A DNA stretch of 62,900 bases, filler included, from Collodictyon triciliatum (Eukaryota): assembly GCA_043381765.1 (NCBI GenBank). It is 6 parts of 6 records of this genome, joined end to end, with 100 filler letters (N's around TTAATTAATTAA, not from the genome) between each part and the next. Parts side by side here need not be neighbours in the genome. Positions count along the whole stretch, not along the records: positions 43,292 to 54,486 come from JBHJMP010002460.1; 5 more parts are not named here. One strand, 5' to 3'. Every line of letters starts with the position of its first letter. Within the stretch, counting starts at the first letter, position 1. Below are positions 19,192 to 60,600 of this stretch, in pieces. Under the pieces are notes generated by a model. That model had not been told where the DNA came from. It was given only the letters and a program-made list of their open reading frames with translations, and did no database searches. The translations under genes and the position numbers were made by a program.

Positions 19192-19689
19192 NNNNNNNNN
19201 NNNNNNNNNNNNNNNNNNNNNNNNNNNNNNNNNNNNNNNNNNNNNNNNNNNNNNNNNNNNNNNNNNNNNNNNNNNNNNNNNNNNNNNNNNNNNNNNNNNN
19301 NNNNNNNNNNNNNNNNNNNNNNNNNNNNNNNNNNNNNNNNNNNNNNNNNNNNNNNNNNNNNNNNNNNNNNNNNNNNNNNNNNNNNNNNNNNNNNNNNNNN
19401 NNNNNNNNNNNNNNNNNNNNNNNNNNNNNNNNNNNNNNNNNNNNNNNNNNNNNNNNNNNNNNNNNNNNNNNNNNNNNNNNNNNNNNNNNNNNNNNNNNNN
19501 NNNNNNNNNNNNNNNNNNNNNNNNNNNNNNNNNNNNNNNNNNNNNNNNNNNNNNNNNNNNNNNNNNNNNNNNNNNNNNNNNNNNNNNNNNNNNNNNNNNN
19601 NNNNNNNNNNNNNNNNNNNNNNNNNNNNNNNNNNNNNNNNNNNNACTAGAAAACCAAAGGTATTGCTCAAAGTCTTAGACACAATTTAC

Positions 19690-20060
19690 AGGAACTGCTT
19701 ATAACCATTTGCCAGCATCGCCGGTTTCTTGCCGTCTATCATTTTACGTATGTGTTTAATGCCAATTTTTCACTTTTTTGTTTTGATTTTGATCTTCTAG
19801 GAGGCACCGAAACCAACTTATACGATGGACGATGATGAGTTTTTCGCTCGACAGGTTAACCATTTATCATACTGTTCAAAAAAAAAAAGATTTATCATGT
19901 ATGGTGTTTCATAATGCGCATCAGAAACATGCTCCTGGTAATTCGTTTTTGACGGCGTCACTTTTGTTTCTTGTAGGAGAAGGTTGTGGCATTTGTGAAT
20001 GGCAAGCATCATAAAGGGAAGCCTTTCACCCGCATCAAGGGCCCGGTGCAAGGCAAGTAA
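19690..20060 (+). CDS. 3' exons of an unidentified gene (after the gap)
   Basis: Three AG/GT-bounded exons splice to TAYNHLPASPVSCRLSFY / EAPKPTYTMDDDEFFARQ / EKVVAFVNGKHHKGKPFTRIKGPVQGK*. Confidence 0.4.
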
Positions 20061-20359
20061 AGGCACGCTGCGCTTGAACTTCATCTCTGCGCCCATCCCT
20101 GTGTTTGAATCGTGGGATTGGTGGCGGGTTGCGCTGAGTCTTTTTTTCCTTGCACGGCGAACACAACATAAGTACGCGATAATCGGCCATTTGTTCGTCT
20201 GTTGTCCACATCCTTAATGATAATAAAAAATAAATATCAAAAGGAATGGAAACTCGTTCGTCGAACATAACATGTAACCAATTATGAACCCATTTTCTGC
20301 CTTTGTATTCTTTTGTTTCCCTTCTCTTTTTTCCAGTTGTATTCCGTGGTGCTTGGGCC

Positions 20360-20510
20360 GAGAACATTTTCTGCTCGTTTACTTCTGGCTATAAGAAGTA
20401 TATCAATCTTTCGAAAAAAAAACTTGGTGCGCTAGTATCCAAGGTCTCACCACTTTTTTCACAGGTTGTGTAGTGGTGAAGGCTGCCAGGAAAGACCCAA
20501 AAGCCTGATT
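20360..20510 (-). ncRNA. Candidate Fanzor omegaRNA scaffold, copy A
   Basis: Lies 3' of RuvC-III and is shared with copy B. Stems: TCACCACT/AGTGGTGA (20447-20479), CTTGG/CCAAG (20423-20443), TACTTCT/AGAAGTA (20380-20400). Confidence 0.55.
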
Positions 20511-22082
20511 TTTTAGAGAAAGGTGTAGGCATATTTTGTAGGATTAAAAGAACTTTCGTGAGTATATTTTTAGCGCTGTTAAAGTCCCTATCAAGAATAC
20601 ACTTTGTTTGCTTTCTGAGCGATTACATTCTTTACATATGAGACATCTATACACTTTTTTTTATATTTCCTTTCGGTGTCATATATTCCAGTTCTTTTTC
20701 GCAGTTGCAGCACATCTTGGAGGTTTTTAATTCATATACACTGTTTCAAAACGTTTGGATTGTATTTTTCGTAATCATCTTCCGATTGTTTGCATAAAAT
20801 GCTTCACCTGAGATTTTCTGCTCCAGTCTCCATACGCCAGAACAACATCATTGCCAAATGTCTTTTCGATTCGGTCCATAAACAACTGTTCACTTCATTT
20901 TGTATTAACATACTGTCTTCACCTCATCTTTCGAAAAGTCAATTGTTCATAAAATCTGGATAATTCTATCTGGTATTTTGATTTCATAGATACATATTCT
21001 CGAAATTGTTCATAATCGACCGTGCATGAATTATGTTTACTCAGTTCTGTCTCTAAATCGATTAAAGATGCTCTTGATGTCTCAAACCGCTGATTCTCTT
21101 CAAAAGTCCTGACCAAAAGAAACAGCACTTTGTAAATATGTTGTCATCCATATCCCTGAAGCATTGTACTTTTTTTTTTCTCGCGCATGAGTATTTTTTG
21201 ATTTTTAAGAGATTTGCTGTCATGTCTTGTTTGGTGTGCCGTGTAGCGTAATTTCTTACCTGTCTCATCCACCATGTAAACCAAATTAAACTTGCCTGCA
21301 TCTACTCCAACTACATTTTTTTTTTGTCGCTAATAGAGATAACTGCTCTTCGGAAAGTTCATCAATATAAACATATTCTTGGTGGGGTTTTTTTTTATTA
21401 TACTTGGGTTTAGAATTTTGAAATACCTTTCTTTTCTAACAATAATGACATCGCCAAGGCGTGTGTTTGTATCATGTATTTAAAATTCTAGTATCTTTGA
21501 TGAAATATCCTCTTCTTCATTTCAAAGAACTTATCCCATAGGGTCTCTTCGAATCCATATATATTCTTCAGTAATGATGTTTTTCCAGTTGATACTAATA
21601 AATTTATCAAACATGCAGTATCTAGAGCAATATGACATGATATTGTGAGTTCTTATAGGGATTGGTTGAAACAGTTAAGTTGCAATGTCCTCAAAAAATG
21701 CGATTCATGTAAATCAAACATGGTGTGTACTTCTTTGGATTAACTTTGATGTCATATTCGATGCCATTTACCATATCGCTGGGAATGATATGATGCATAT
21801 GCGTTGTAGCCCATTCTTTATATTGTTCCGGTATTTCGAGTTTCTTGAAGATGGCTTCTTTTTTTTTTTTTTAACTTTCGTAACTCTGCCTTTTTAGTAG
21901 CTTCCGTAATATTCTCATCTTTAGGAACTGTTTGATTTAATAAACGCAGTAATATCTTTACAGAATGTTTGTTAATGTTATTATGATAAGCTGTTAACAT
22001 TTGCTTCGCCAAGTATAGTAATACATGAGACAGTCTAACGACGGAAAGCGTTCTTCTCGGGACAAAAGGAATCGAAAACCAT

Positions 22083-22145
22083 AGAGATAAAAAGTCATCA
22101 TTTTTTTTTTCCTTTATTCGATTCAAAGAGATAAAAAGTCATCAT
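22083..22145 (-). mobile_element. Micro retro-insertion (25 nt) with perfect 19-bp TSD inside Fanzor copy A
   Basis: AGAGATAAAAAGTCATCAT [T9-CCTTTATTCGATTCAA] AGAGATAAAAAGTCATCAT. The homologous position in copy B (about 52021-52045) is single-copy and empty. Confidence 0.9.
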
Positions 22146-22458
22146 GTCATCTCTCAAACCTGGTTTTTAATCTTGCTGGTCTATCTTGTGAAACTATTCC
22201 GACTGTCTTTAAAGCGTACAAAAAACGATTCATGGATTGTTGGGAGTTGTTGTGATTTCAATACGTAATATCTTGCAAACATATAAGTGTCAGTAACCGA
22301 ATTATGACACAGTAAAACCGTATCGTTGATTTTCGTGATAGTCGTCCGGATTCTTTACAATCGACTTTAGAGATGTTTTCACATTTAGATAGTGTGGTTT
22401 TATGAATTTTAGATTCTTAGACTCAAGGCTTTTCTTTTCTTCATGTGAAAGTCTTTGT

Positions 22459-22529
<71 letters not shown>

Positions 22530-42991: not shown

Positions 42992-43676
42992 GCGAAGCTT
43001 TCGAGGTGGTCGAGCTGGCCAATCGGCGGGAGATCGAACGACGCCGAAAGATTCTCAAGATCACACGCGAGGTACTCTCTTGAGTTTTTTTCTTTCCTTT
43101 TTCTTTTCTTTTCTTTTCTTTTCTTTTCTTTTCTTTTCTTTTCTTTTCTTTTCTTTTCTTTTCTTTTCTTTTCTTTTCTTTTCTTTTCTTTNNNNNNNNN
43201 NNNNNNNNNNNNNNNNNNNNNNNNNNNNNNNNNNNTTAATTAATTAANNNNNNNNNNNNNNNNNNNNNNNNNNNNNNNNNNNNNNNNNNNNAAAAGAAGA
43301 GAAAAGAAGAGAAAAGAAGAGAAAAGAAGAGAAAAGAAGAGAAAAGAAGAGAAAAGAAGAGAAAAGAAAAGAAAAGAAAAGAAAAGAAAAAGAAAAAGAA
43401 AAAGAAAAAGAAAACAGAGAAAATAGAGAAGAGGAAAAAGACGAGCACTTCCTGAAGTACGTTGATTATTATTATTATTGCTTTTAAAAATTTCCTCAGA
43501 AAACGAAGTAAAAAATAAGGTCAAAACCAAAAAACCAAAAAAAAAACAAAAAAACAAAAAAACAAAAAAACAAAATCAGGAACTTAGTCCGACAGAAAAA
43601 AAAAACACCTCTTAGAGGCCGTATCCTTTATTCCAACGGAGGCTAAAACCCCCTTCACGACGGTAAAGAGTGTAGA

Positions 43677-45134
43677 ATGTCCGATGCGCCGACTGAAGGA
43701 GACGCCACCGATCCAACCCTGTGTGGCCAGCTTGATTCGCTTTCACTTGGCGACGGTACTGAGACTCAGCCCACAGAGCCCACTCCGAAACAGCCAGCGC
43801 GACCCTCGAGCCAGGACGAAGCAGCTAGCAAGGGTAACCGATAAACCTTTCCCGTTTCTTTGGCTTTGATCTCCTCCCAACGCCGCAGTTTTATTAGCTC
43901 TCAGACGTGGCAAACAGTCGATCATTAGTTAAACCATGTGCATTTTATTCATTTCTTGGCCTTGAACTTCAAAACATGCTTTCCACTGCATACCTAGGAG
44001 AAGGGATTGCATCTCCAGATGCGCAAGAAGATTCAGTCTTTGTCCAAACAGCCATGAAGCACATAGGCGACGTGTCTGCTCCTGTGAGAGAGAGGCTGAG
44101 GGAGTTGATTCTGCTGCAGGAAAGGCGAGATGCGATGGAGAAAGAGTTGGAGCGGCAAATCACTGCGATTGAAAAAAGCTATGAACCGAAATTCAGCGCA
44201 TTTTACCAACAGCGGAGCGGTGTATTGTCTCATGGTGAAGAGATACCTGAGTTCTGGTTTACTTGCATGGTGCAAGTTAATTTGATTGCTAATCTCATCC
44301 AGGAGCAGGATGAAGATGCTCTTAAACATATCCTTGATATCCGTGTGGAACCACTGGCCGAGTTTGTGAATGGTTTTAAGCTGGTTTTTCAGTTTAGAGA
44401 GAACCCTTTCTTTGAAAATGCACTCTTGGAAAAAACCTATATCCTTGAAGAGACTGATGTATTGGATGAGTTGAATATCAAGGAAATTAAAGGTACAGAG
44501 ATAAGGTGGAAACCAGGAAAGAACCTGACTGTAAAAAAGGTTACGCGAAAGAAAGGGAGAAAAGGTTTGCTTTGACTTTATCGGAAGCGCCGTTCGTCCA
44601 GCGTATTCATTTTATCACATTTTCATGATTCTGTTCATTTTCTTGGGTTTTCTAAATGAGGTAGTAAAAGAATCCCCTTCTCACGACTGGCCTATATTTA
44701 TGTGTATGTATTTGGACCTCTTACCGATTTCAAACACCACTGATAAGGATCGAAACCCAAATCCGAAAGTAAGGTTGAACCGGTTGATAGCTTCTTTAAT
44801 TTCTTCAACCCTCCATCTGTTCCAACCGAGGACGAAGAATCTGATTACATTATGGTGAGTTGCCTTTGAAGTATGACTGATGGTCTCCTCCCAAATAATT
44901 AGAAAATAGCCACCAAAGTTTAATTTTTCTTTTCAAGCGGCATATTTACATGTATCATTTTTTTTTCTAAAGAGAATCAGTGAAATCCTGGAAGCAGATT
45001 ATGAAGTGAGCGCTAGTTTCAAAGACAAACTCATTCCGAAGGCTGTGAGTTGGTATTTGGGTGAAATTCTGGATAGGGACGGCCAAGACAATTTCATCGA
45101 AGATGGTGCTGAATCTGATGGTGATGACGCATAA
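43677..45134 (+). CDS. NAP1: Nucleosome assembly protein 1
   Basis: Four exons. Motifs IPEFWFTCM...IQEQDEDALKHILDI, FKLVFQFRENPFFENALLEKTY, GTEIRWKPGKNLT, DSFFNFFNPP, ADYEVSASFKDKLIPKAVSWYLGE, and an acidic tail. Confidence 0.96.
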
Positions 45135-45353
45135 AATATTCATCCCTATAAGCTCTCACTCTATATAATTTTACTACTGACTCTAATACAACCAAAACAT
45201 CAAACGCTGGGCCGAAAAAAAAAACCAAGTGCAAATCCCAAAAAGAAAAAAAGTATTCGCAATTGTTTCTTTTCCTCCTTCATTTGGTTTAAGGGAAGGA
45301 AGGGGGTTAGTTGTTTTTTTTTCTACAGTCTGACGTAATTGTTTGCGCCTTGA

Positions 45354-45991
45354 AGTATTCACAAACGTTTTTTCCCCCCTTTATTCGATTCAGAGCGCAG
45401 CAAGGTTACGCCATACAAAGGGGTGAGATAGGTGCGCATGGTGGAGAGCAAACGCGAGTAGGAGAAGACACTGCCGTGGAGAGGGTAGCACTGGAAAGAA
45501 GTCAGTGATAGCGAGCTGGTCAGGTGGGCGTCCCAACTGTTTGATTGGTTGTGTGGGTAATAATGGTTGAATATGTTGCGGGAGATATCGCACGACACAT
45601 TCCCAAGTCTCTCTTCGCTTGCCGTCAGAGTAGCGAAGAATGCAGGTGTGTTTCAGCAGGCTGTTCAGGAAGCTGTATTGCACGAGGCTTTCCAGCCTGG
45701 ATACATTGATTTCTGTTTCGGGTGAATCATTAGAGCGAGAGAATGCGCGCACACTCCATAAGGACCACAGCATATGTCCCCTTGTGACTGTCCAGAGTAT
45801 TCTAGAGTTGTGGGTCGTTTGGTATTGTGGGCCAAACAGGATGTCGGGCGCGCTGAGACGGTTGGGAGCATAATCAAGCTCAGAGAGCATCTTGTGGGTA
45901 GATTCTGTCACTTTTTGAGCAAGAGAGCACTTAACCAAATGTGTGTTCGATAGATTTATCTCCACTATGGCACATGTAGTATTCACAAATG
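45354..45991 (-). mobile_element. 5'-truncated non-LTR retrotransposon (L1/Tx1-like ORF2 C-terminus plus 3' UTR) with 14-bp TSD
   Basis: Intronless ORF fragment with HLVKCSLAQKV and LWTVTRGHMLWSLWSVR, resembling the zf-RVT tail and the LW-x-IW-xx-R motif. It ends GAATCGAATAAAGGGGGG-A(n) and is flanked by AGTATTCACAAACG (45354-45367) and AGTATTCACAAATG (45978-45991). Confidence 0.8.
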
Positions 45992-46546
45992 CTAATCAAG
46001 AACATGTCAACTCTGACACCTTTCTCCCTTTCTCCCTCTCCTCTCTACCTATTTGATTATTCCTGAAATCTCTCAAACACTACACTCCCGTGATGACCTC
46101 ATAATCCATTTCTTCATTTGATTTCAACCCCCAACACGGTAAGTTACATATCTTCCTATCTGCTGGTAAACAATGCCAAAACCCACGCGGGGCTTCAGGC
46201 ATCATCATTCCCCCCTTTGCCTCCACAAAACAAAAACATATTAAACACCAACCAGCAGACGCAAAGGCCGCCGAAATATATACTGTACTTTTTAACTCAT
46301 AACATTGTTACAGCACCGGTGCTGCAGCATGCGACATGCCCGGAAGAAGTTGATCAGGCCACAAGGAACAGGCAGCAGCGATCGCCCCAGGCAAAAACGA
46401 TCTGTAGAATGTTCTACGACCGCATCAACACAAACATCCGATAACTAAAAATATATCAACCAATAATACTTATTGATATGAAGAATATATCGATGGCTGA
46501 ATATATAATAAAGTAAATCGCAAAGAAATAAAGGAAACTTGTATAC

Positions 46547-46708
<162 letters not shown>

Positions 46709-46743
46709 GAACACAATAATCCACCCAACCAAAGGAGCAGAGT

Positions 46744-49700
46744 ATGAGCCGACGAAAAGATAAAAAGGCCAACAAGCCAGTCCCCGTCCACTTTACAGAC
46801 ACAGAGTTGGCAGTGCCCTCACAGATCGGCCTGACTTCGCCTGACTCGCTGGCTTCTGATGAGACGGCCCTCGATCCCCAAGAGGGAAGAAAGATCCTTC
46901 TCCTTGTCTTCCTTTGTATGCTTTCTATTCACATCCCTTTGTCATATGTCACAACGCTCCGTGTCGTGAGGTCGGCAGATTCTTAATTTTGCAAGTTTTC
47001 TTCTTTTTACAGAAAGGATGTACCCTCATCCGAGAAGGTTTATACATGTACTCGCCCTTTCATCGCTTTGTATGCTACGCTAGATATGCTCCAGGGAATC
47101 CCACTTGGTTTGATCCAGGGTCCCATCCCTCTCACACTCCAAGAGAAGCAAATATCATACAAGGACGCAGGCATTTTCTCCCTCACGATGTATCCGTATG
47201 CAATGAAGGTTTTGTGGTCTCCCTTTGTTGATTGCTATGCGCTACCAGGTTTTTGCATGCGTCTTTTGTGTATATAACCTTTCAGATCCGAAACTGCTTC
47301 CTTTTCTGTGTATACATGGCTTTAGTTTACCTTCTTCAAATTACGCTTCTCTTCCGTCTTTTTTTTTTTTTTTAAGAAAAATAAATTCGATTCGTCGTAG
47401 AAAGGAGACAAGCTGCTTCTAACATTTTTTTTTTATAAAATTCTGCCTGTGTCATCGTGCGTATTAGGAGTTGGAAGACGCAAATCGTGGATCATTCCAA
47501 TACAGATTATTCTATCCATATCTCTCATCGTACTGAGTTACTATATCGAAGATCTAATGAGCACACATGAGAATATATACCTTCTCACGGGAATATTTTT
47601 CTCCATGGTTGTCCTTATTGCCACGCAAGATATAGCTGTTGATGGTACCATTACTCTACCACAATTTCACGCCATAACCCCAATTTACTATGTCATATTC
47701 ATTCATAAGAGACTTAATTTATTTATTTATTTTAATTTTCCTTCTTGTTACCCTTGTCGTCCTTAAGGCTGGGCAATATCGTTGATGACTGGTCAGAATG
47801 TACGATATTGTGCTACATGTCAGGTCAGTTCAATCATCTATATTATGATTCGTTTTTTATTTTTAGATTTCAATCCCAGAAACAAAGTTGAATGCACACA
47901 ACACTTCTATTCATCCAGTTACAACTATACTTTGCTAGACGGTCGGGCTCACTTTAGGACTATTTGTTTCTTCTGTTGTTTTCAGCGTCCTCAATTCATC
48001 AACGCTTTGCGAATATTCTTTTCTAAGCTGTACAGATGATAAAGTTTACATCACCCTGCCTCAATTTATGTACTTTTGGGGGGTAGCGTTTGTATTTATT
48101 ACTGTTGCTGTGATACTATTTGAAGAGCCTGAAACCAAAGCAGATGAAAGTTCTATCGGCGATTTTTACAAGTCTATGATCAAATTAATACGCCTCCCAG
48201 GTTTTTATTAGTCGCTTTACTGATATGACCCCTTGTTGCCTAACCAAGTGCAGAATACAATATAGGAGCTAATCATACTTAGATTATTTGGTATTTTTTA
48301 TCGTTTATTTAAAATTCTTTTTTTCTTGATTTTTTTTATATCTCATCGGGTCATTGGGAGTCTAGCTGTCATGAAGCTGCTGATCGTCTTACTTATATCA
48401 AGATATGCCTTTGTGTCACTGGAAGGTATTGCCATGGTCAAGTTACAAGAGGTATTTTCTGACTATCTAATCATCATCACTAAAATTCCAACAGAAAGGA
48501 TTTTCCTCCTAAAAAGTAATTTTATGTTGAGCAATCTTTACTCATTCATAAATATTCGTTCTTATTCGTTCTTATTCAACCAGAAAGGGGTCCGGAAGAA
48601 TAATTTTGCCATACTATCCTTGATAGGTAGGTATTAGCACAACGTAACCCTTCCTACATGTGTGACCATTTAGTGATTCATTCCATGTTTCTTATCAATC
48701 TGCTCTAGATATTTTTATATTATAGTGTCCTATATATTTATTAAATGAGCCATCAATTGGTCTAGATTTTCCTTTTCAGCTTATCTTTGTTGGAATTGCG
48801 GATGTCCTGATCACCAAGCAAAAAGGAAAATTTATGCCGGTAGCGTCCCTTTTATTTTTAGGATAGATTAGTAAACGGCACATTCTTTCGCTAACCCTAT
48901 TTTCTTTCAACAAAATTTTAGTGGTTTGTCGGATTTGGTGTAAAATATGTGATCACATTGGTCACTGTTATTTTTCGTATGACTTATTTTCTACTCTTTA
49001 ATCACCTTTTCATTCCAAATGTACCTGCTTCGTGTGTCATGTACGTGATATTACTATCTGTTTATTTCAATCCAAGAAAATTGTTTTATTATCATATTTC
49101 CTCTTCATAGTCATCAGCATGCCCGTCGTCAGCATCGGGTCGTCTGTAAATTGGGACATTATGGTTACTGTGAGCTTTCTTCAGATTGTTTCTTCCGCTG
49201 GTTCTATACTGATGTTTGTTTGTATGGTAAGTCTAGTAACAAGACTTTTGTATATTTTCTTGACCTCAATCTTTTCTCTCTGCCATTTGGCTTGGAATAG
49301 TAAACAACATATTATCTCTTTCATGTCTCTCCATTTCGGCATCAATTTTCCCTTCGATATGTGACACTTATCTATGTTGTTCAACAAGCTAAATATCCCT
49401 TTTCTACGCAGGGCGCGTTTTTTTCGGAGGTTGCTGATCCTGAAATAGGAGGTAGCTATATCACCTTACTAAACACAGTCGGCAACTTCGGTGGCACATG
49501 GCCCAAACTTGTTGGCTTTGCATGTATGTAATTGCTCAAGAGCCATTGATATTTTGTTGAAGTATGTATGCATAAAGAATAGTTTATCTTCCTTTTCCTT
49601 TTTCCTTTTCCTTTTTCCTTTCAATCTCAAGATACCGAATCATACAGCTAAATATCCCAAGAGAAAGTGTTCCCATTTACCATAATATGATTTTCTCATG

Positions 49701-50198
49701 TGCGATGCATTTCTACCACATATACATTTTAAAGCGATGGATTATTTTTCGAGCCATTTCTGCAACGGTATATCAATTCTATATTAATAATCACAATTAA
49801 TCCCCGCGCCTGATGTTGTGTTGAATATACTATCTCTCCTGTCTCACGTTTCTACCAGACCTTCATATAGCCTTATTGCGATTTACAGGAATCAAGGCAT
49901 ATCCCTGTGAAACAAACAGCGACTGCGATGTCTTTGGCTTCTCCCCCGGCCACTGCATAACCGCAGACGATGGATTCATGATTGTATCTGCTTCATCTTT
50001 CGTTATTGGTAAGTCCCAAGGCATATCTTGATATTTCATGATTCTTTCCATGTAAAATAATTCAATATCATGCCTGGCACTTTGTTATATTTAAATTAAA
50101 AAAAATTGTAAATAGGACTCGTCTTTTTCTTTGTCAGCCGCAAAATCCTTCTATCTCTTCAGGATACAAACATGTCTCATTGGCGAATTCAGAAATAA
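46744..50198 (+). CDS. SLC33A1: Acetyl-CoA transporter AT-1 (MFS, SLC33A1 family)
   Basis: LLLVFLYMLQGIPLGL, FSLTMYPYAMKVLWSPFVD, GRRKSWIIPIQ, IATQDIAVDGWAISL, YCATCQTVG, AFFSEVADPEIGGSYITLLNTVGNFGGTWP, and a terminal HWRIQK*. Confidence 0.95.
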
Positions 50199-51182
50199 AT
50201 AGATATATAAATTTGCAGGCTTTGTTTCTTTGTTTCTTTGTTTGCGTGAGGCAAATTCCCCAAAAGTTTCTATAATATGCCTCACAATGTGAATAAATGT
50301 GGTGAACACACTGAGAGAGAGAGACTTCAGAAGAACAATAAATAAAAAGTCGCAATAATTGAGAAAAGTCTCTTTTGCTGAGAAGCAATAAACACACTGA
50401 GAGGCAAAAGACACATTCTCCAGAAAATAATACCATTAAACTGGCGTTCTTTCCTTCTTCTCGCGGTTCAACACATTCTAAAGCCGAAAAAAAAAACACG
50501 CAAGCGAACCCGAGAAGGACGAGACCACCTACCAGGATACAGGCGCCACAACTCTGCCCCATGGAATGCCTACGGATCGTACGCGAACTGAGAAGGCCGA
50601 CGCAGCCAATGCAGAGGGCGAAGAGGTCACTTTACTACATCCTTTGCAACACAGGTTATGCACCGTGACACACCGACGATCAAGGCGCCAGCTGCCTCCG
50701 ACCCGTGAGCACAACAAACTACTAATAAGACGGAGCGAGCTCTTTGAAACGAATAAATAATAATAATAAAGGGTTGAAAGACATCAAGTTCTAGCCATCA
50801 ACCCACGGGTTGCAAGATAAGTATAAATGTAATGCTCTGTATTAGTTGCTATGATTCATTTACCTTCCCTTTTTCTTTTTTCATTTTTCATTTTTCATTT
50901 TTCATTTTTCATTTTTCATTTTTCATTTTTCATTTTTCTTCGGTTTCATTCAGTCTGTAATTGGATAAACTTAATTACAAAGGTTGTGACAAACTTGGGT
51001 TTATCCCTGCCAAGGCACATCACTTTTTATACAAGGAAAGTGTACCCACATATAGCAGTTTATCGCACAGACAACCATCAATTTAAATCTGGATTGACAA
51101 AAGCAGGAGCCTTAATGAATCCAAGAAGCAACCTGAATGATATAATAGTATAATTAGTATATGCAATAAGATTTAAAAAATA

Positions 51183-51243
51183 CTTTATAATATCATTCTT
51201 TTTTTTTCCTTTGTTCGATTCAAAGGCTTTATAATATCATTCT
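51183..51243 (-). mobile_element. Micro retro-insertion (27 nt) with perfect 17-bp TSD
   Basis: CTTTATAATATCATTCT [T8-CCTTTGTTCGATTCAAAGG] CTTTATAATATCATTCT. Confidence 0.88.
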
Positions 51244-51685
51244 ATTCCTATAATCAATTTATATTTTATTTTTCATTTATGTAATAGTACTATTAAAATT
51301 CAAATCCAAAAATTACAAACAAGCCCTTGCGTTGGCTCAGACAGAACCTTCCCTATAAACCTGCCACCAAACATGTATTCCAAAAAAGCATACTATCCAC
51401 ACTTGCGGCGGTAATCATGTTGTTTGGGGCCGATATGTTGACTTTCAGTCCCAAGGGCTATACAGCCGTCCTTTCGAACTGGCCGAATCGGCTCTCGGCG
51501 TTTTGTCTCAAATCACTTGTAAAAAAAAAACTTTGTGTGTTTGTTTGCCACAATGCACAGATTTTGAGAGTCTCGGTAGATGCTTAATTTTACATAAATC
51601 GATTTTGTGCAGTTTTCTTATTTATGTATTAAATTGACTGATTGACTAAAGTCTTATTAATATTGAAAAACTCGGTATTTTTCTA

Positions 51686-53760
51686 AACGAAAAAGTAAAA
51701 CAAAGGCTATCAGACGAAGAAAAGAAAACGTCTTGAGTCTGATAATCTAAAGTCTGTAAAACCACACTATCGAAATGTGAAAATATCTCTTAAGTCGATT
51801 GTAAAAAATCCGGATGACTATGACAAATTCAACGATACGGTTTTATTGTGTCATAATTTGGTTACCAACACTTATATGTTTGCAAGATGTTACACATTGA
51901 AATCACAACAACTCCAAACAATATATGAAATGTTTTCTTTTTGTACGCTTTAAAGATGGTCGGAATAGTTTCACAAGATAGACCCGCAAGTTTAAAAAAC
52001 CAGGAATGAGAGATGAGTAAAGACATGATAGCTTTTTATCTCAATGATTTTCGATTCATTTTGTCCCTAGAAGAACGCTTTCCGTTGGTAGGACTGTCTC
52101 ATGTACTACTGTACTTGGCGAAGCAAATGTTAACAGCTTATCATAGTAACATTAAGGAACATTTTGTAAAGAGGTTACTGCGCTTTATAAATCAAACAGT
52201 TCCTGAAGATGAGAATATGACGAAAGCCATTAAAAAGGCAGAGTTACCAAAGTTAAAAAAAAAAGTCATCTTCAAGAATCTCGAAATACCGGAACAATAT
52301 AAAGAATGGGCTACAACGCATTTGAATCATATTATTCCCAGCTGTATTGTAAAAGGTATCGAATGTGACGTTAAAGTCAATCCAAATAAGTACATTTGTG
52401 TCTGATTTACATGAATCGCATTTTTTGAGGACATTGGAGCCAAACTGGTTCAACCAATCTCTATAAGAACTAACAATATAACATGTTATATTAACCTGGA
52501 TACTGCATGTTTGATATATCTATTAGTATTATCTGGAAATTTGTCATAACTGAAGAATATATTAGGATGCAAAGAGACCCTATGGGATAACTTTGAAATG
52601 AAAAAGATGGTCTTTAATCAAAGAGACTACAATTTTAAATACATGATACAAACAGACGGCTTGGCAGTGACATCGTTGTTTGAAAAGAAAGGTTTTTCAA
52701 ATTCAAAAATAAATCAAAAAAACCCAAAAATATGTTTATATAGATGAACTTTCCGAAGAGCTGTTATCTTTATTAGCGAAAAAAAAAATAGTTGGAGTGG
52801 GCGCAGGCATGTTTAATTTTGTTTACATGGTGGATGAGACAGGTAAGAAATTACATTACACGGCACACAAAGAAGATATGATAGCAAATCTCTTGAAAAT
52901 CACAAAATACTCATGCGTGAGAAAAAAAAATTCAATTATTTGGGGATATAGATGGCAACAGATTTACAAAGTGCTATTTTTTTTATTTTTTTTTTGTCGC
53001 ATGACTTTTGAAGAGAATCGGTAGTTTGAGACATCAAGAGTATATTTAATCGATTTAGAGACAGAACTGAGTAAACATAATTCATGCACAGTCGATTATG
53101 AAAAAATTCTAGAATATGTATCTATAAAATCAAGAAACCAGATAGAATTTTCCAGATTTTATGAACACGTAACTTTTCGAAAGATGATATGGAGACAGTA
53201 TGTTAATACAAAAAGTGAACAGTTGCTTATGGACCGAATCGAAAGGACATTTGGCAAGGATTTTGTACTGGCGTATGGAGACTGGAGCAGAAAATCCCCA
53301 GATGAAACATTTTATGCCAACAATCGGAAGAGGATTACGAAAACTACTATCCAAAAGTTTTGAAACAGTTATTGTAGATGAATTTAGAACCTCCAAAATG
53401 TGCTGTAACTGCGAAAAGGAACTGGAATGTATGAAGCCGAAAGGAAATTCAAAAAAAAAAAGTTGTTTAGATGTCTCATATGTAAAGAATGCAATCGCTC
53501 AGAAAGCAAACAAGGTGTATTCTTGACAACGGACTTCAACAGCGCTAAAAATATAATCAACAAAGTTCTTTCAATTCTTCAAAATATGCATACACCTTTT
53601 AAAAAACATGCTGTCGGGTCTTTCCTGTCAGCCTTCGCCACTGTGCTATCTTTGTGAAAAAAGTGATGAGACCTCGGATGCTAGCGGACGAAGTTTGCCA
53701 CTCGAAAGATTGGTTTGCTCTTCCAAGTAAATGAATATATCGAAATTGTGTTAATTCGGC
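51686..53760 (+). mobile_element. Fanzor1-like (TnpB-derived) element, copy B, near full-length but frameshifted
   Basis: VKISLKSIVKNP...NDTVLLCHNLVTNTYMF; YLAKQMLTAYHSNIKEHFVKRLLRFIN; YMIQTDGLAV; RuvC-I IVGV(G)AG with Asp replaced by Gly; LETELSKHNSCTVDY; LAYGDWS; MPTIGRGLRKLL; IVDEFRTSKMCCNC...CKEC; DFNSAKNI. The coding span of about 1.95 kb implies roughly 640 aa. Confidence 0.9.
53605..53760 (+). ncRNA. Candidate Fanzor omegaRNA scaffold, copy B
   Basis: Aligns with copy A 20360-20510. Contains a GAAA-tetraloop hairpin CCACTC-GAAA-GATTGG (53698-53713), TTTGCT/AGTAAA (53714-53731) and the GGTCT/AGACC pairing (53617-53621 with 53669-53673). Confidence 0.55.
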
Positions 53761-54284
53761 TTGTGAGTTCCATAAATAGTGCTTCAAATATTTTATTTAC
53801 ATTGCGTTTTTTCTTCTTTCTCTTTTTCCTTTTCTTTTTCTTTTTCTTCTCGAGACTTGGTATTTTCTCCACGTGTCTTCTCATGTTTTGGGCCGACAGA
53901 AGGACACTAAAGTTGTCTTTTGTGCCTGTGGCAGTCACAAGCACCTCAGAGTGATGAAAACCAACCCATGCTAAAGGCAGTTTCCCATCTCGTTTGTCCC
54001 ACCAAACTTGTGTACGGTTGCCTACCCAAAGGGCGGGTTGGGCGTGCGAGATGGAAAGAGCGAGTGCGGGATGCCATGCCACAGGATTGTGCTTGTGCGC
54101 AATCGCTATGATCCTGTCTTTTACCTTGCACATCTGACACTGAAGATGTTGTATCGCCTCATGCTGGCCAGGAAAAGATAGGAAACTCGGCTGAAAGGAA
54201 GTAGATAAGGCAAAAGTTCTGGCGATCATACTCACAAACAAACAAAAAAAACACTAGCTTTTATTTATTTGTTTGTTTGTCTAT

Positions 54285-54331
<47 letters not shown>

Positions 54332-54586
54332 CTTATTTACTTATTTACTTATTTGCTTATTTACTTATTTGCTTATTTACTTATTTTTTATTTGTTTGTT
54401 TATTATTTGTTTGTTTATTATTTGTTTGTTTATTATTTGTTTGTTTATTATTTGTTTGTTTATTATTTGTTTGTTTATTATTTGTTNNNNNNNNNNNNNN
54501 NNNNNNNNNNNNNNNNNNNNNNNNNNNNNNTTAATTAATTAANNNNNNNNNNNNNNNNNNNNNNNNNNNNNNNNNNNNNNNNNNNN

Positions 54587-54631
<45 letters not shown>

Positions 54632-54686: not shown

Positions 54687-57600
54687 CCAAATTCTTGATA
54701 TTTGCTGCTGATTGGTAGGCGAGCCTCTTGGCGATGTTCCTTCATCCCCACTATGAGTATGTTGCTTTGATTGGCCAAGAGGACCAGAGCTCTTCTTGTC
54801 TCCCTTTGATATCGTGTCATATAATTCCTCACCAGCCCTGATATGGTGTCACATTATATATTAAAAATATTGTCGCAAAAAATAATGAACCCCCATTATC
54901 ATTTTATCGCACCTTGGCTGGCCAGATGTGATAATTTGTTGCAAAGCCCTTATTGAATCTCGTCTAAACGGAGACATTCTTTGTTGTGCGCTAGTAATAA
55001 AAAGTTCAATGATATTGTTATATGGTTTTTGGAATAAAGTTTAGGACTATATATTATTCCTACTCTGACTCCTGTGTTTTGTTCATATTTCCTTCGCTGT
55101 GGTCTGCGTTGTGTACGTCAAGAGTGTTTCGTCCCAAAATGTTGCTATTTGATGCTTTTGTAGAGCAGTTTGTCAAAAACATAAATTATGCTAAGAAATG
55201 TGTAGATGCTATCATAACATGACAAAAGTAAAATTATAATAATAATAATTACCTCGCCTGCCCATAAGTCGACTATTCTCGAGTCCACGTTTTTCAAGCA
55301 AAGAACTATTAAACACCCCAAAATATTCATCAATGTGCCGATATGTGTGTTATATAAATCAATGAAATCATTAATAACAAAGTAACCACTCACTTAAATT
55401 TATCCTCATCCCTAGTCGCCTCCTAAATAAGAAGCACGTCATATAATGAAAAGTCCAATACTTGGTTTTAGTTTTTCGGTCAATTTACAAGCCAGTAAAT
55501 AGATTGAACAGTAGTTACGTGATATCTTGGAGTCAGTTGGACAGATTTATCCTCATATTGCGAACCAGAAGTCTGTATTTATTGTTCTTTTTAATTTTGA
55601 AGCGAATGGATTTTTATTTTTAAAGCATAGAGGCGTTTTGGGACATTGATTAATTTTTAAAATTTGAATTGGTGTTGTGGGGAAAAAAAACCTTAGATTG
55701 CACCAATATTTTTCTACTTTGATCTAAAATCGTTTGAAATTGAGAACTTTGTAAAGTAAAAAAAAGAAAAGAAAAGGATTTTTTTTATTCAAGAATTTTT
55801 TGAAATAAGAAAAAATACGTAAAATACACAATCAATAACCTCCAGTAATCAAAATAGATATAGAGTGAACGAGGGAGCTCAGTTTATCCTTCAATGCCTC
55901 AACTTGATCTGACTTATTCAAACACAGGAATATATCCAAATGTCTTCCTAGCTCGGATAAAAAGAATGTCCCCAGCACATTAGCCTTTTCGAACTTCTCA
56001 CCCAGAATATCTGAATTAATTCTCTCGATAGACTCTATCTTGGGTAGAATGGATTCACTTTCGTCATCAAACTGAGTCTCTGTAAATGCGTCTGCCTTTC
56101 GAACAAGAACAACCCTCATCGGAGCAATAGTCCCCGCTGTTTCTTGATCGGTAATGATTTCTTGGTTATATTCCTCTTCCTCTCCAAAGTCTTCATTGAA
56201 TTCTTGCAGCCCGTTCTCCTCGTCTTCAAAGGTGTGGTCGACATTTTCTTGGTTCATACTGGCGCTAGAATGGCTCCCAACGATGGAGTCTGTATTGAAG
56301 GAATCCCTCGACATATCTTTGTCCTCTTTAGATTGGAGTGAACCCTTGCTTAAAGATTTCTTGCTGCGGGTGGTTTTTTTCCCATCCCCACGTGCTGCAA
56401 ACTTGGACAACTTCAGCTGTGACCCCGATCTGTGTTCTGTCGCATCAGAAGATATGGATTTGCCACTGACATCTCTAGGGAGGAAGGATGATGTTGAAGA
56501 GCTTCCAGGAATCACTGTCACCGGGTCTGTGTTGACTCCGATCGAATGGGTTGTCGTAGTAATTTGGTCTTCACCATCCAAAATGGTAGAATATCTTTTT
56601 TTGTCCTTCAAAGACCTCGACATCCTTCGACCTCCAGAAGCCCCTACCTTAGATTTTCTTCGTCGTGAATCGGAGGCTTCTGCTTCGTTCGCCAGCGAGT
56701 CCAAAGAATCTGGCTCTTCTGAAATAGTAGGAAACTCATCATCTTCTTTGTTCTCTGGTGTAGGCACTGTGTCATTCTCCATTCCTTCTTGATCAGCTCT
56801 ACCCAAGCCGACCGCATCCTCAGCCCTGGTCTCTTCATATACTTCGTTTTCTTCCTCTGCTTCAGTTTCTCCCAGTATTTCGTTCACGCTGTCTGTATCT
56901 TTAGGTTTGAGGCCATCTTTGTTTGAATCGACTTCTTTCCTCTTTGTAGTTTTCGATACCTTCCGTGAGGACTGCTGAATTTCAGATGATTTTGATTTTG
57001 TGATATTCGATTGCTTCTTCAGTTTTTCAGAGACAGAACCCTGGTTCAGTTTCTTACCCATAGATGGTGACTTTGATACCTTTTTAGATACCCTTACTTT
57101 CTTTCCTTTTTTCGAGTCTCCGTCTCTATCTCTGGACGACCTGGGAGAGTCAATTATCTCAATTTCGTCTAGTATGGAATCAAGTTCTGAATCATCATCA
57201 GAGTAAGCTTCGCTAGTGCGCTGGTCGTCTCCAAATGATGTGTACGAGTCATCACCATAAAAATGGTTTGATGTTTCCGACTTCAACGAGTTGGTATCAG
57301 TGGATTTGTCACTCTTATCGATGATCGGTGCTGGTGGTGCTGAATGAATGATGATTCTTTCATAGTCTATGAAATTTATGAGGATTGTTAAATGAAATCG
57401 GTAAGAAATGCTCTAAAGATAAAATTAGCTGGAATGTATATAATATAACTGAGCCATTATCATGAAAAACTAGATATCTCACTTAGCAAGTCTTGGGGTT
57501 TCAGTTGCTCAACGGAAGACACTACCCCCTATTCGATGTACCGAGTGGGCGTGTTTGAATATAGCATGATTGTAAAATGTAAATGGAGTTGTATTCGCTT

Positions 57601-60600
57601 TATCTTCATTTAAACTTCATTTATATTTGTTTTTTTTAAAAAAAAAAATATGGACATGCCATAAGAATAAAACAACAGGTCAAGGACAAACCTTAGAATC
57701 AGATACTTGAAGGTCGGCAGTTGATAACCTGAATAATATATTTTATCGAGATATGAAAAAGAAAATATCGATTATACTTTATCAAGATAAATTTAAGAAT
57801 CTATAAGGTAGTGTTTTTTTTTTCGATGATATGATTCTCAAAATTCTTACATTGGTTCCAACACAACCAGAACTTGAGGCGGTGTTGCCTGACAGGACGA
57901 CTCTAGGGTTACGCACAATCTTGCCTGAACTGCTTTATCACAGTTCATATTGAAGGTTGGCTGTACGTCCACATTTGCAAAGGTATTTATCAAGGCGTCT
58001 ACATTCTCAACTTGGCCTACCCCTCGTCCATAGTTCTTTTTTAAAGAAAAAAATTGTTAATCAAAATGAATAAAATATAAGAACAGCCATTCTTAGTGAA
58101 TCATTTTCTGTAATGTTCTTAGGTTAAGTGATAAATTTATTTATTTATTTATTTATTACAAAAAGAATAAACATTACTGGCCCCAGTCTTTCGATGCGCA
58201 TATTTGGATTTTCATGAGGAAGGCGAAGAAGCATCTTCAAATTGTTCGACGAGGCAAATGACTTTAAGGGGCTGACTTCAGCCAATATCTCTGTCTTGCG
58301 GTTGAGCTTTCTAAAGTCTTCACATGAAAGTTGTCGACGAAATCTTCTCAATACTTGAGAGTTATGGTCACTGAGCTTGAATCGCAGAGGCCCTGATGGC
58401 CATACTTGTGTGTCTCTATTCTCATAACTTACTAGATCTGTTGTTTGAATCTCTATCTCGGTAGTTTCCTGTACGATTTTGACTTCCTGCTCTGTTTGAA
58501 TCTCAACAGTTCGATACAATCCAGAGTTGGTTTGCTGCTGGATGAAGGCTTCTCTTTGCCGTTCTTTTTCGTCAATATTTGTGCGAGGAATGTCATCTGC
58601 CAGCGATATGACCGATTCTGTCTCTGTGTCACTTGAGAAGGAGGTACTGCGATCTGAAGAGAGCCCATCCATTTTAGAACTTGCGTGCCTGAGTTTTGGG
58701 GCCTCAAATCGTTCCGGGTAAACTTGTTCCAAGATATTAAGGTCTTGAAGTGACATCGAGCCTCGCTCCTTCATCGTTGCTTTCAGTCGATACGCCGCTT
58801 TATATATGATGAATAAGAAATTGTAAATTCTAACACCTTCTATGGGGCTTTTGAAATCACATTAGAATAGAAAAACATATCTCTTTTCGTTTTTTAATTT
58901 TATTAGAAAAAATAAAAGGGGCATGATCAGGGGTAGAATCAACATGTGAGACTATAAATTTTGACCGATTTCGAAGGGGGACTAAGATTTCGATGGTTAA
59001 AAATTACCCGTTCCTGCAGCTGAAGCATTCTCATTTTCTATATCGATTCTCTTTTTTAATTCAACTTGTAATTTTTCTGGAATGCAATATAATTAGAACT
59101 ATATTCTTTTCCTCTTAATTTCATGATGAAAATTTTCTCCTGATTTGGAATAGACTTGCAACAGGACATTTACTTGCGTTGATTGATTACCTATTGTTTC
59201 TCGGAGTCTAACAATTTCTTTTTCAAGTTTGTAATGCTTCGATGAATTCCTCGTAATCATGTCATCGATTTTCCTCTCCAAGTTTTCGCATTCTTTGGTT
59301 TTTTTTGCTAGTGATGTCTTCAGTCTAGAATTTCGATTGAAGAAAGTACAGCGTCAAGAGATCTCGATATATTAATCACTATTCCAGTTTTGTTCACGAT
59401 ACTAAATTGGTAAAGAAATTATCAAAAATACCCACATAAAATATTCAGCCAGTTTCCTCATCGCATCCTGTCTTTCAGACTCTTTAGATTCTGTTCAATT
59501 TCAAATTACACGTTCAGTATATTATTTTTCAAAGGTTATTCGTATCGTAAAGTGTACGTCTTGGTCACCAAGGTGACAACATGGGAAAGCTGGTGTATTG
59601 CAGCTATGAATGTACTCAGAATCATATCTGTGGTGAAAAAAAAAAAAATTCAAACCAAAGTCGATTATCTGCCGTCTTAATCCAACCATCACAGTTTCGG
59701 ACTGTTTCAGGTCAAATGACAATCGAAGTATTTTTGTGTCAGCCTGTCTTTTGTTTTCTTCGGCAGAATTCTTTTCTCTGTGGCGCAGTATATTTGGATA
59801 TTTTATTGAATCGAATAAAGGGGAAAAACTTGCATATCACATTTAAAAAAGCATTGGTAAGTAATGGTTTTCTAATTTGTACATTTAATTACTTTGTCAA
59901 GTCTTCCATTTGGCTCTTTAGACTGCTGATATTTTCCCTGAATCTATGCATTACAATTTATCGGTATTGCTAAATACTTGGTTTGAAAAGCTTTTTTTAA
60001 AAAAAAAAATTAATCCCCACTTCAGTTTGCGCAAAATGATAGGATTTTCATTAAATAAATAAATAAAAAGGAGAGCATATATCTATTAATAATGTAGCGT
60101 TGAATTTCGGGCTTACATATGACCATCCGTCTTCAAATCAACTATAGATTCTTCAACTGGTTTGACCACAATCCGGCATAATGGTTGGTAATTCGTTGTT
60201 ATTATTGTTGTTTTTTATCAAAAGGTTCATAAAATTTAACAAATCAGACTAGATAAGGATTGAGAATCCCAGCAAATAATAGTTTATTCAGGTCGGGAGA
60301 AAAAAAAAGTAAATTTTCTCACGTTCGGCTATTGTTTTCCTAAGCTGGTCGTTGTCTGATATTAGCTTCTTGCTCATAGCTGACATATTATTCCACACAA
60401 TCTCCAGCAAATCACCACGTTCTTGGCATGTGACAGAGACCTGACGGATTAATTCGTGATAGCATGCTTCAAATACCTGATAGCTTGTGTGAATTTGATC
60501 CGAGGCTACATATTTTACAGATGGTAATTAAGAAGAAGGAAAAAAAATTCTTAGACGACAAGCCGGAAACCATGTACACTGATTTATAAGAACTTTATAT

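Follow-up and report, generated by a model that had tools for sequence, protein, structure and literature searches.

Two decayed copies of a Fanzor1-encoding repeat in Collodictyon triciliatum

Introduction

Fanzor1 proteins are eukaryotic relatives of bacterial TnpB and CRISPR-Cas12; they are TnpB-type, guide-RNA-directed RuvC DNA endonucleases carried by DNA transposons. Structures have been solved for SpuFz1 (PDB 8GKH, 9CEU-9CEZ), PpFz1 (9CF0-3) and GtFz1 (9CER-T). The metal-coordinating residues of SpuFz1 are D383, E541 and D606 (Saito et al. 2023), and a rearranged layout of the RuvC triad has been described by Jiang et al. (2023). DPG at RuvC-I is given as a Fanzor1 motif, and TDG as the hallmark motif of the Fanzor1 WED domain (Yoon et al. 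2023, PMC10711439). Two mobile elements are close points of comparison: PUl-4, a Fanzor1-only element with mariner terminal inverted repeats and TA duplications (Bao & Jurka 2013, PMC3627910), and the non-autonomous SfAV element, which encodes Fanzor1 alone (Yoon et al. 2023, PMC10711439).

Here we describe two related stretches of DNA from the eukaryote Collodictyon triciliatum (GCA_043381765.1). Like the PUl-4 and SfAV elements, they form an approximately 2 kb Fanzor1-only unit, present in more than one copy and belonging to a family with viral and cellular hosts. The ends of the PUl-4 and SfAV elements are marked by clear inverted repeats, with short target duplications beside them, whereas the copies studied here have no demonstrable ends; likewise, the SfAV element makes abundant guide RNA, while no supported guide-RNA fold was found here.

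Results

Extent and identity of the two copies

The window, i.e. the whole stretch of 62,900 nt that was analysed, consists of six contig pieces split by spacers of N44 + 12 nt + N44. Copy 1 lies in the piece at 43292-54486 (JBHJMP010002460.1) and copy 2 in the separate piece at 11314-22529. Positions 51690-53712 (+) and 22468-20404 (-) align with 83.7% identity in 2098 columns (blastn), and the ungapped columns of a global alignment are 87.8% identical. This confirms the sequence-only reading of two colinear elements of about 2 kb on different scaffolds, whose coordinates (51686-53760 and 20360-22465) were correct to within about 50 nt. The intact relative P0005 (634 aa) matched copy 1 at E 9e-73 and copy 2 at E 1e-65 (tblastn), well outside what chance would give; both are colinear with it, the order being kept along the whole threading, and the inferred gene length is approximately 645-667 codons. 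Searches of the window by tblastn with four relatives as queries gave no third locus at E<=1e-3.

Homology between the copies stops sharply just 3' of the gene, and end alignments showed the 3' flanks to be unrelated. Upstream of copy 2, a poly(A) run (22469-22529) leads to the contig end; on its 5' side, copy 1 is thus delimited only as far as the copy 2 contig reaches. Freshwater metagenome contigs with approximately 10% divergence were also found, which show that further copies of the repeat exist. The features of both copies are listed in Table 1. Elsewhere in the window, a telomere-like repeat at about 1380-1430 proved to be (AAATCC)n, which is not a telomere unit.

Table 1. Coordinates of the repeat copies and their features within the window
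Feature	Position	Strand	Remarks
Upstream stretch, membership in the element uncertain	50974..51689	+	Matched in part by diverged contigs from metagenomes (50974-51146, 51367-51559)
Copy 1 repeat unit	51690..53715	+	From blastn and end alignments; extent as definable from copy 2
Fanzor1 pseudogene, copy 1	51714..53637	+	Threads onto P0005 residues 2-616 of 634, 43% identity
REC-like in-frame fragment (LSHVLLYLAKQMLTAYHSNIKEHF...)	52085..52405	+	Best PDB match GtFz1, E 7e-4; served as search query
TDG motif (QTDG), WED domain	52652..52660	+	Coordinates counted by hand
RuvC-I motif	52791..52808	+	VGVGAG in copy 1, VGVDAG in copy 2
Insert common to both copies relative to viral P0005	52935..53045	+	From threading; holds 3 of the 6 copy 1 stops
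GDWS at the canonical RuvC-II position, without Glu there	53277..53288	+	Present in both copies
DEFRTSKMC with relocated catalytic Glu (about 53380-53382), then first CxxC	53377..53412	+	PpFz1 match, E 2e-6
Second CxxC (CLIC) and RuvC-III	53472..53555	+	TDFNSAKNI in copy 1 (Asp at about 53532-53534), RDFNSAKNI in copy 2
3' tail, conserved between the copies as far as they match	53638..53715	+	Presumed right end; place where a guide-RNA scaffold is expected
Copy 2 repeat unit with Fanzor1 pseudogene	20404..22468	-	Threads onto P0005 residues 4-625, 42% identity

Family assignment

A profile of 31 full-length relatives retrieved three Fanzor1 chains from the PDB at E values of 1e-95, 1.6e-92 and 4.8e-87; the next match was only at E 0.033. 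Chains labelled Fanzor2 or TnpB were absent from the matches at E<=10. Searched singly, P0005 matched SpuFz1 (9e-37), PpFz1 (7e-34) and GtFz1 (7e-16), with no further PDB match at E<=1e-3. The best PDB matches of fragments from the window itself were Fanzor1 proteins in the right order, GtFz1 (7e-4), SpuFz1 (1e-3) and PpFz1 (2e-6), of which the SpuFz1 match ends on the shared GDWS and the PpFz1 match includes DEFRTS; no PDB match was obtained with the RuvC-bearing copy 1 fragments 52716-52934 (RuvC-I) and 53457-53620 (RuvC-III). Pfam searches with seven window fragments gave only PF07282, sub-threshold at E 0.0087; of ten relatives, five matched this profile at E<=0.01 and one exceeded its cut-off.

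The structure was modelled on P0005 as a proxy and not on the window's own protein; the window copies share only 43% identity with this proxy. The AlphaFold model of P0005 (pLDDT 86.2, pTM 0.83) aligned with SpuFz1 at TM 0.78/0.81 over 632 columns, compared with 0.24/0.31 for ApmFz2 and 0.21/0.33 for ISDra2 TnpB (Foldseek). The proxy model thus predicts a Fanzor1 fold with an enlarged REC lobe. As judged by sequence statistics and predicted structure, the window family is Fanzor1, not Fanzor2 or TnpB. The sequence-only reading had preferred Fanzor1 over TnpB and Fanzor2 and had proposed a profile search and a superposition on SpuFz1; run with the 31-relative profile and the P0005 model, respectively, both bear it out. 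It had also taken a length of about 640 aa and the N-terminal region as Fanzor1 traits.

Active-site layout and motifs

In the family-profile alignment, D372, E530 and D581 of the family fall on SpuFz1 D383, E541 and D606. Copy 2 keeps all three catalytic residues, namely D (VGVDAG), E (YELKTS) and D (RDFN). In copy 1, the corresponding positions hold G, E (DEFRTS) and D (TDFN); its VGVGAG sequence means that the catalytic Asp was lost to Gly at about 52800-52802. The DEFRTSKMC of copy 1 corresponds to YELKTSKMC in copy 2 and aligns with LLDEYKTS of SpuFz1, and a C4 zinc finger (OrfB_Zn_ribbon / TNB; CCNC...CLIC) lies between this alternative Glu and RuvC-III in both copies. The earlier proposal of a GDWS at the canonical RuvC-II position combined with a Glu moved to just before the zinc finger is upheld. 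The motifs it cited were all found, but divided between the copies: VGVDAG and RDFNSAKNI occur only in copy 2, and DEFRTSKMC belongs to copy 1.

The layout resembles that of the solved Fanzor1 proteins in the RuvC-I Asp, GDWS, the Glu within xDExxTS ahead of a C4 zinc finger, the Asp in NRD, the TDG motif and the length of about 640 aa, and homology to the family is full-length for all three, although P0005 is only 19-23% identical to them in the Foldseek alignments. TDG is present as QTDG in copy 1 and P0005 and as a decayed QTHA in copy 2; among the 31 relatives, T318 is invariant and G320 occurs in at least 90%. The RuvC-I of both decayed pseudogenes has Ala for Pro, reading DAG in copy 2 and GAG in copy 1, in contrast to DPN in SpuFz1 and to DPG in the relatives, where D372 is invariant and P373 occurs in at least 90% of the 31. 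The extra RuvC insertion of the PpFz1 type is absent, P0005 having 634 aa compared with 722-726 residues in PpFz1 chains. The N-terminal stretches K-x-SLKSI and Y-H-x-NI-x-x-H are found in both copies.

Decay of the copies

Threading onto P0005 revealed that the copy 1 gene is broken by approximately 9 frameshifts and 6 in-frame stops, and the copy 2 gene by approximately 12 frameshifts and 9 stops. At the start codon, copy 1 has ACG (51714-51716) where copy 2 keeps ATG (about 22444-22442), followed by a 1-nt deletion. Differences between the copies number 61/549, 56/550 and 75/551 at the three codon positions (p=0.19); the divergence is even across codon positions and hence neutral. Contigs from other sequencing runs (X3 record 15 and X1 record 8), which cover copy 1 only in part, show 0-1 differences to it and span the frameshift at 51934, the stop at 52007 and the frameshift at 53441; since these runs match, the three lesions are not assembly errors. 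With their frameshifts and stops, both copies are pseudogenes, and neither can make a nuclease now.

The lesions lie mostly at different sites, with a copy 2 lesion within 12 nt of only 5 of the 15 copy 1 lesions. Co-located lesions that were inspected lie at homopolymer runs or are of differing kind: the pair 51934/22225 is +2 versus -2, and the pair 52007/22149 consists of different stop codons. One identical +1 T frameshift is common to both copies (52423 / 21696) and lies in a T-run.

Compared with the viral P0005 element, the window copies carry an extra insert of approximately 60-110 nt. In copy 2 it lies at about 21169-21109 (-) and reads GTACAATG...TTTCTTTTGGTCAG. Only this copy has GT...AG bounds, and the frame across an A-run is ambiguous; the 61-nt stretch is possibly an intron and is considered here as a candidate.

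Element ends, transposase and guide RNA

No terminal inverted repeats were detected around the copies in the repeat search, no target-site duplication is readable at either copy, and the best match to a transposase in the window, obtained by tblastn with a viral DDE_3 transposase, had an E value of 7.6. An inverted match between 51010-51040 and 53646-53677 was rejected as not significant: its score of 27 was reached in 8 of 500 shuffles and is equalled elsewhere in the same contig. The 3' tail gave no guide-RNA fold beyond expectation (z +1.22, with 182 of 200 shuffles folding at least as well), and one of 35 pairs is compensatory in a comparison limited to the two decayed copies.

Relatives and phylogenetic position

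The REC-like fragment of copy 1 has 76 relatives at E<=1e-3 in public protein sets of 1.84 billion representatives, in which the intact members closest to it are 55% (partial protein) and 46% (full length) identical. Two protein fragments called elsewhere, P0001 and P0004, share 80-81% identity with the query where they match it, and P0001 reads through the site of the frameshift common to both window copies. Among intact full-length relatives, the closest come from IMG/VR viral contigs, which include a 254-kb contig labelled GVMAG. Viral relatives (L003; L004-L006; the P0005 cluster) sit in a Tc1/mariner-type transposon; the L003 element measures 3.3 kb, has perfect 32-bp inverted repeats and encodes a divergent transposase of 346 aa (DDE_3 + HTH_28). 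A quick tree placed the window copies in the P0005 subgroup (SH-aLRT 92), beside the viral clade and not inside it, with P0002 as their nearest relative.

Viral-contig scans with a window fragment, P0002 and P0003 gave no match, nor did a genome-contig scan with P0002. In the scan of metagenome contigs, the only matches were two relatives, both distant (36-37% identity). Word-based protein searches with 54-aa and 92-aa fragments gave no match. Among sequencing runs sharing words with the window, the DNA shares were at most 0.11, and no RNA runs were listed.

Discussion

With high probability, both stretches derive from a single dispersed repeat with a former Fanzor1 gene, about 2.0 kb long and possibly as long as 2.8 kb; the two copies are old and decay independently. 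The ancestor would have been a functional Fanzor1 travelling on a cut-and-paste transposon, moved by its own transposase or in trans, with a guide RNA made from its 3' end as presumed for the intact relatives on viral contigs. At some point, the lineage would have exchanged such elements with large DNA viruses, in one direction or the other. We infer transposition only from family membership and the different 3' flanks. The copies resemble viral P0005 with 43% (copy 1) and 42% (copy 2) identity at approximately 600 aligned positions and share a basic N-terminus with it (MKRKK... in P0005, MKKRK... in copy 2). In contrast to the viral element, with its 32-bp inverted repeats and transposase, the window copies show neither, and their reading frame appears to reach the end of the shared DNA.

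Fanzor2 (ApmFz2, PDB 9B0L) and TnpB (ISDra2, PDB 8H1J) have the RuvC and zinc-finger core in common with the window family, Fanzor2 the relocated Glu as well. According to Jiang et al. (2023) and Yoon et al. (2023), the relocated Glu and zinc finger are also common to Fanzor2 and TnpB2, and together with the weak PF07282 match this would be the case for a Fanzor2 or a prokaryote-type TnpB. Such an identity is nevertheless refuted by the profile search and the fold comparison, and its probability is close to nil; the length, the REC-like N-terminus matching GtFz1 and the TDG motif argue against it as well. Both groups lack a sequence match, are shorter, give TM values of 0.2-0.3 and occur in an IS607 or IS200/605 context. 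A Fanzor2/IS607-type element was rejected on the missing ApmFz2 profile match and on length (about 640 aa versus about 400-500 aa), and no recombinase was seen adjoining either copy, where an IS607 context would call for a serine recombinase; TnpB of IS200/IS605, a protein of about 400 aa with a canonical RuvC-II Glu and a prokaryotic IS context, was rejected since GDWS replaces that Glu, the fold match is poor and the contigs are eukaryotic. Within Fanzor1, the copies might instead represent a live, uncatalogued, lineage-specific family whose intact copies elsewhere in the genome were missed by gene callers. The diverged freshwater contigs indicate more copies, copy 2 keeps its ATG and three catalytic residues, P0001 reads through the shared frameshift site, and sampling around the host is poor, with only 2 relatives of its NAP gene at E<=1e-10 (44-47% identity). 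We nonetheless consider this reading unlikely: both copies are dead and diverge neutrally, no intact member among the 1.84 billion representatives is closer than the 55% (partial) or 46% (full-length) relatives, and the 76 relatives and the virus-borne members contradict the lineage specificity claimed in the sequence-only reading. Its claim that gene callers miss the family is only half true, given that P0001 and P0004 were called as proteins elsewhere.

How the copies arrived has also been weighed. Their closest intact full-length relatives being on viral contigs, including the 254-kb contig labelled GVMAG, and virus-derived Fanzor1 elements being described inside eukaryotic contigs by Bao & Jurka (2013, PMC3627910), they could be pieces of an integrated giant-virus genome rather than transposon insertions in host DNA. 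This origin is highly improbable: the shared DNA amounts to only about 2 kb with unrelated 3' flanks, the same contigs carry microsatellites and ordinary eukaryotic genes, namely NAP (E 4e-39) and an AA_permease-type exon, GC content has no step at the copies, the tree places them beside the viral clade, and the scan of viral contigs gave no match to P0002. Alternatively, the gene could have been dead before a segmental duplication copied it, which would account for the identical +1 T frameshift, for the 5 of 15 copy 1 lesions with a nearby copy 2 lesion and for the inverted repeats and target duplications not being found. Such a duplication appears quite improbable, however, as T-runs are slippage hotspots and the shared lesion sits in one, the other inspected co-located lesions differ in kind, homology ends sharply 3' of the gene and further diverged copies exist. 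A bolder version of the dispersed-repeat reading would see a Fanzor1-only element of an undersampled freshwater eukaryote, sister to the mariner-borne viral Fanzor1s and recording virus-host transfer, without classic inverted repeats, with a reading frame extending to the element end, an intron gained in the host and intact members that are still active elsewhere in the genome; we regard this combination as improbable.

In summary, the gene type is already well known, and the two copies are dead members of Fanzor1. For annotation, we advise masking both stretches as repeat DNA of Fanzor1 origin rather than treating them as unexplained broken reading frames; beyond that, the finding is of little importance. 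Should the genome contain an intact copy elsewhere, this would add a single compact RNA-guided nuclease candidate to the thousands listed. What the copies contribute is modest and concerns evolution: C. triciliatum, a poorly sampled eukaryote, has fossils of a Fanzor1 lineage, and the nearest intact relatives of that lineage are found in a Tc1/mariner transposon on viral contigs. This fits the idea, put forward in publications of 2013 and 2023, of large viruses as agents that spread Fanzors from one eukaryote to another.

Family assignment

The identification as Fanzor1, a eukaryotic TnpB-type RNA-guided nuclease, which the sequence-only reading had proposed for two broken copies, proved correct, since in-frame fragments, an intact relative and a family profile all match Fanzor1 proteins with solved structures (SpuFz1, PpFz1 and GtFz1). 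Each of three distinct in-frame pieces of copy 1 has a solved Fanzor1 as its best PDB match, and the matches are colinear with the proteins (see table); two further copy 1 fragments had no Fanzor match in the PDB, and Pfam returned PF07282 alone for the window fragments, below threshold. When fragment 52085-52405 was used as an HMMER query against the full set of 1.84 billion representatives, 76 relatives reached E ≤ 1e-3 and 10 of these reached E ≤ 1e-10; many of the 76 are full-length proteins of 570-755 aa. Two short protein fragments, P0001 and P0004, share 80-81% identity with the query where they align to it, and the closest full-length relative among the 76 is P0005, an intact viral Fanzor1 of 634 aa. 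P0005 matches SpuFz1 (9e-37), PpFz1 (7e-34) and GtFz1 (7e-16), with no PDB match beyond these three at E ≤ 1e-3. A profile built from 31 full-length relatives matches the three structures at 1e-95, 1.6e-92 and 4.8e-87, followed by LaTranC at 0.033; no Fanzor2- or TnpB-labelled chain was found at E ≤ 10 in this search of structures. The superposition on SpuFz1 suggested earlier was performed with an AlphaFold model of P0005 as a proxy, computed from the 31-relative alignment and confident (pLDDT 86.2, pTM 0.83). TM scores were 0.78/0.81 for SpuFz1, 0.71 for PpFz1 and 0.65 for GtFz1, and far lower for mimivirus Fanzor2 (0.24/0.31) and ISDra2 TnpB (0.21/0.33).

Coordinates of window features. Frameshift and stop counts come from a frameshift-aware alignment to P0005; they are approximate and vary with the scoring scheme.
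Feature	Position	Strand	Details
Copy 1	51720-53637	+	P0005 residues 2-616 of 634; 43% identity; ~9 frameshifts, 6 in-frame stops
Copy 2	22439-20437	-	P0005 residues 4-625 of 634; 42% identity; ~12 frameshifts, 9 in-frame stops
Copy 1 fragment	52085-52405	+	GtFz1, E 7e-4 (PDB)
Copy 1 fragment	53025-53300	+	SpuFz1, E 1e-3 (PDB); match ends on common GDWS
Copy 1 fragment	53299-53460	+	PpFz1, E 2e-6 (PDB); with DEFRTS
Nucleosome assembly protein (NAP) exon	43898-44575	+	Intron-free, 225 aa; E 4e-39
ORF with N,N-dimethylformamidase beta-subunit-like C-terminal domain	24327-24857	-	PF20254, E 5e-15; eukaryotic contig
Open frame, Ser/Asp/Glu/Lys-rich	55832-57412	-	526 aa; without Pfam match
Open frame, Ser/Asp/Glu/Lys-rich	58145-58861	-	238 aa; without Pfam match
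tRNA gene	10187-10259	+	Rfam RF00005, 65 bits; sole Rfam match in the window

Active site

Two magnesium ions are bound in SpuFz1 by D383, N385, E541 and D606 (Saito et al. 2023, PMC10432273). In the profile alignment, where 394 residues were subtracted from the SpuFz1 numbering for the MBP fusion, these metal-site residues land on three family columns. The motifs cited in the sequence-only reading are all present, but divided between the two copies: the DPG aspartate (P0005 D372) lies in VGVDAG in copy 2 and corresponds to VGVGAG in copy 1, the glutamate of IDExxTS (E530) to DEFRTS in copy 1 and YELKTS in copy 2, and the aspartate of NRD (D581) to RDFN in copy 2 and TDFN in copy 1. Whereas family relatives carry Pro in DPG, both window copies have Ala there. 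GDWS occupies the position of the canonical TnpB RuvC-II glutamate, and the layout of the window active site is the rearranged one that Jiang et al. 2023 (PMC10530073) describe across Fanzors as a whole and in TnpB2. Copy 1 also has, as QTDG, the TDG motif termed characteristic of Fanzor1 (Yoon et al. 2023, PMC10711439).

Viral relatives and phylogeny

Viral contigs in IMG/VR, including a 254-kb contig labelled GVMAG, encode intact proteins 80-88% identical to P0005, and another viral contig carries a 49% relative. In viral locus L003, on the 254-kb GVMAG contig, the Fanzor1 gene lies inside a 3.3-kb element (3637-6952 of L003) bounded by perfect 32-bp inverted repeats, with a divergent 346-aa transposase (DDE_3 and HTH_28) on the minus strand and the intact Fanzor1 (634 aa) on the plus strand. 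The element is complete and apparently intact, with the Tc1/mariner-type layout that Bao & Jurka 2013 (PMC3627910) had reported for giant-virus Fanzor1. No remnant of the L003 transposase was found in the window. Three further viral contigs (L004, L005 and L006; 57, 173 and 82 kb) are 99.99-100% identical over 7.3-11.9 kb and therefore seem to be assemblies, one per sample, of a single virus. The Fanzor element that they carry shares 74% DNA identity with that of L003.

A quick tree (midpoint root, SH-aLRT support only; n = 39) comprised 32 of the 76 relatives (length ≥ 570 aa), two partial proteins, three viral loci and the two window copies. The window copies are sister to each other (99), followed by the partial protein P0002 (95), and these fall into one group (92) with P0014 and a clade of P0003 and the viral P0005, L003 and L004 (97). 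The window copies are adjacent to the viral clade and outside it; the direction of transfer is not given by this midpoint-rooted tree. Published work on Fanzor1 already covers intron capture, N-terminal nuclear localisation signals, non-autonomous elements that carry Fanzor1 alone and the intermingling of its members with viral lineages (PMC10530073, PMC10711439, PMC3627910).

Extent of the repeat unit and genomic setting

With 50501-54600 as a blastn query against the whole window, the sole partner was 22468-20404 (-), which aligns to 51690-53712 (+) with 83.7% identity over 2098 columns; a global alignment of the copies gave 87.8% over ungapped columns. N-runs (44 + 12 nt + 44) mark the window as six contig pieces placed one after another. 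The copies lie on different pieces (43292-54486 for copy 1, 11314-22529 for copy 2), and tblastn with four intact relatives recovered both and no third locus in the window at E ≤ 1e-3. On the 3' side, the match ceases at ~53712-53720 / 20404-20396, past which the flanks are unrelated. Copy 2 is bordered at 5' by a poly(A) tract followed by the contig end, which leaves the true left boundary of the unit unreadable. Since diverged metagenome contigs also span 50974-51146 and 51367-51559, 5' of copy 1, the unit may reach as far as ~700 nt 5' of the Fanzor1 gene. Just 5' of this region, a (TTTTTCA)-like short repeat (50869-50937) draws numerous unrelated metagenome contigs; depth there is high and therefore uninformative on the element.

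A repeat search found no inverted repeats that stood out; the score of one candidate pair (51010-51040 / 53646-53677) was reached in 8 of 500 shuffles and matched elsewhere in the same contig, and the pair was rejected. The 3' tail conserved between the copies is the usual coding place of the Fanzor1 guide RNA. A guide-RNA fold in this tail was unsupported, being no better than shuffles (z +1.22), with 1 of 35 pairs compensatory.

Genes of an ordinary eukaryotic kind, the NAP exon and an AA_permease-type exon, are found on the flanking contigs. A database search with NAP yielded just two relatives at E ≤ 1e-10 (44-47% identity), so the eukaryotic host lineage is poorly sampled. PF20254 is a mostly bacterial and fungal family. 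The copy 1 locus was seen at low depth in freshwater/aquatic metagenome runs of four studies. Long simple repeats, namely poly(A), (TTTATTTG)-like arrays and (AAATCC)n, lie at contig ends (22469-22529, 54244-54486, 1380-1430) and probably broke this assembly.

Decay of the copies

Copy 2 retains an ATG start codon, followed directly by a 1-nt deletion, and copy 1 reads ACG and has lost the RuvC-I aspartate. Across the frameshifts at 51934 and 53441 and the stop at 52007, contigs from other sequencing runs show 0-1 differences from copy 1, so these lesions are not assembly errors, unless one of these runs was the source of the assembly. Other contigs, ~10% diverged, were also found, and further copies therefore exist. 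Both copies share an insert relative to P0005 (~60-110 nt, 52935-53045), which contains three of the six copy 1 stops; as it reads GT...polypyrimidine...CAG across 61 nt in copy 2, it may be an intron, with the frame over the adjoining A-run ambiguous.

A copy 2 lesion lies within 12 nt of 5 of 15 copy 1 lesions. One co-located lesion, a +1 T inside a T-run, is identical in both copies, and two others that were inspected are unlike in kind (+2 versus -2 at 51934/22225; different stop codons at 52007/22149). On this evidence, the two copies look to have decayed mostly independently. The three codon positions carry similar shares of the differences between the two copies (61/549, 56/550 and 75/551; chi-square p = 0.19), which indicates that selection on the protein was absent as they diverged. 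Knowledge of Fanzor1 dates back to 2013, its RNA-guided nuclease activity was shown in 2023, and the survey of Jiang et al. 2023 (PMC10530073) lists 3,655 Fanzors, drawn from 22,497 assemblies; the window holds a pair of dead Fanzor1 copies, of a gene type already known.
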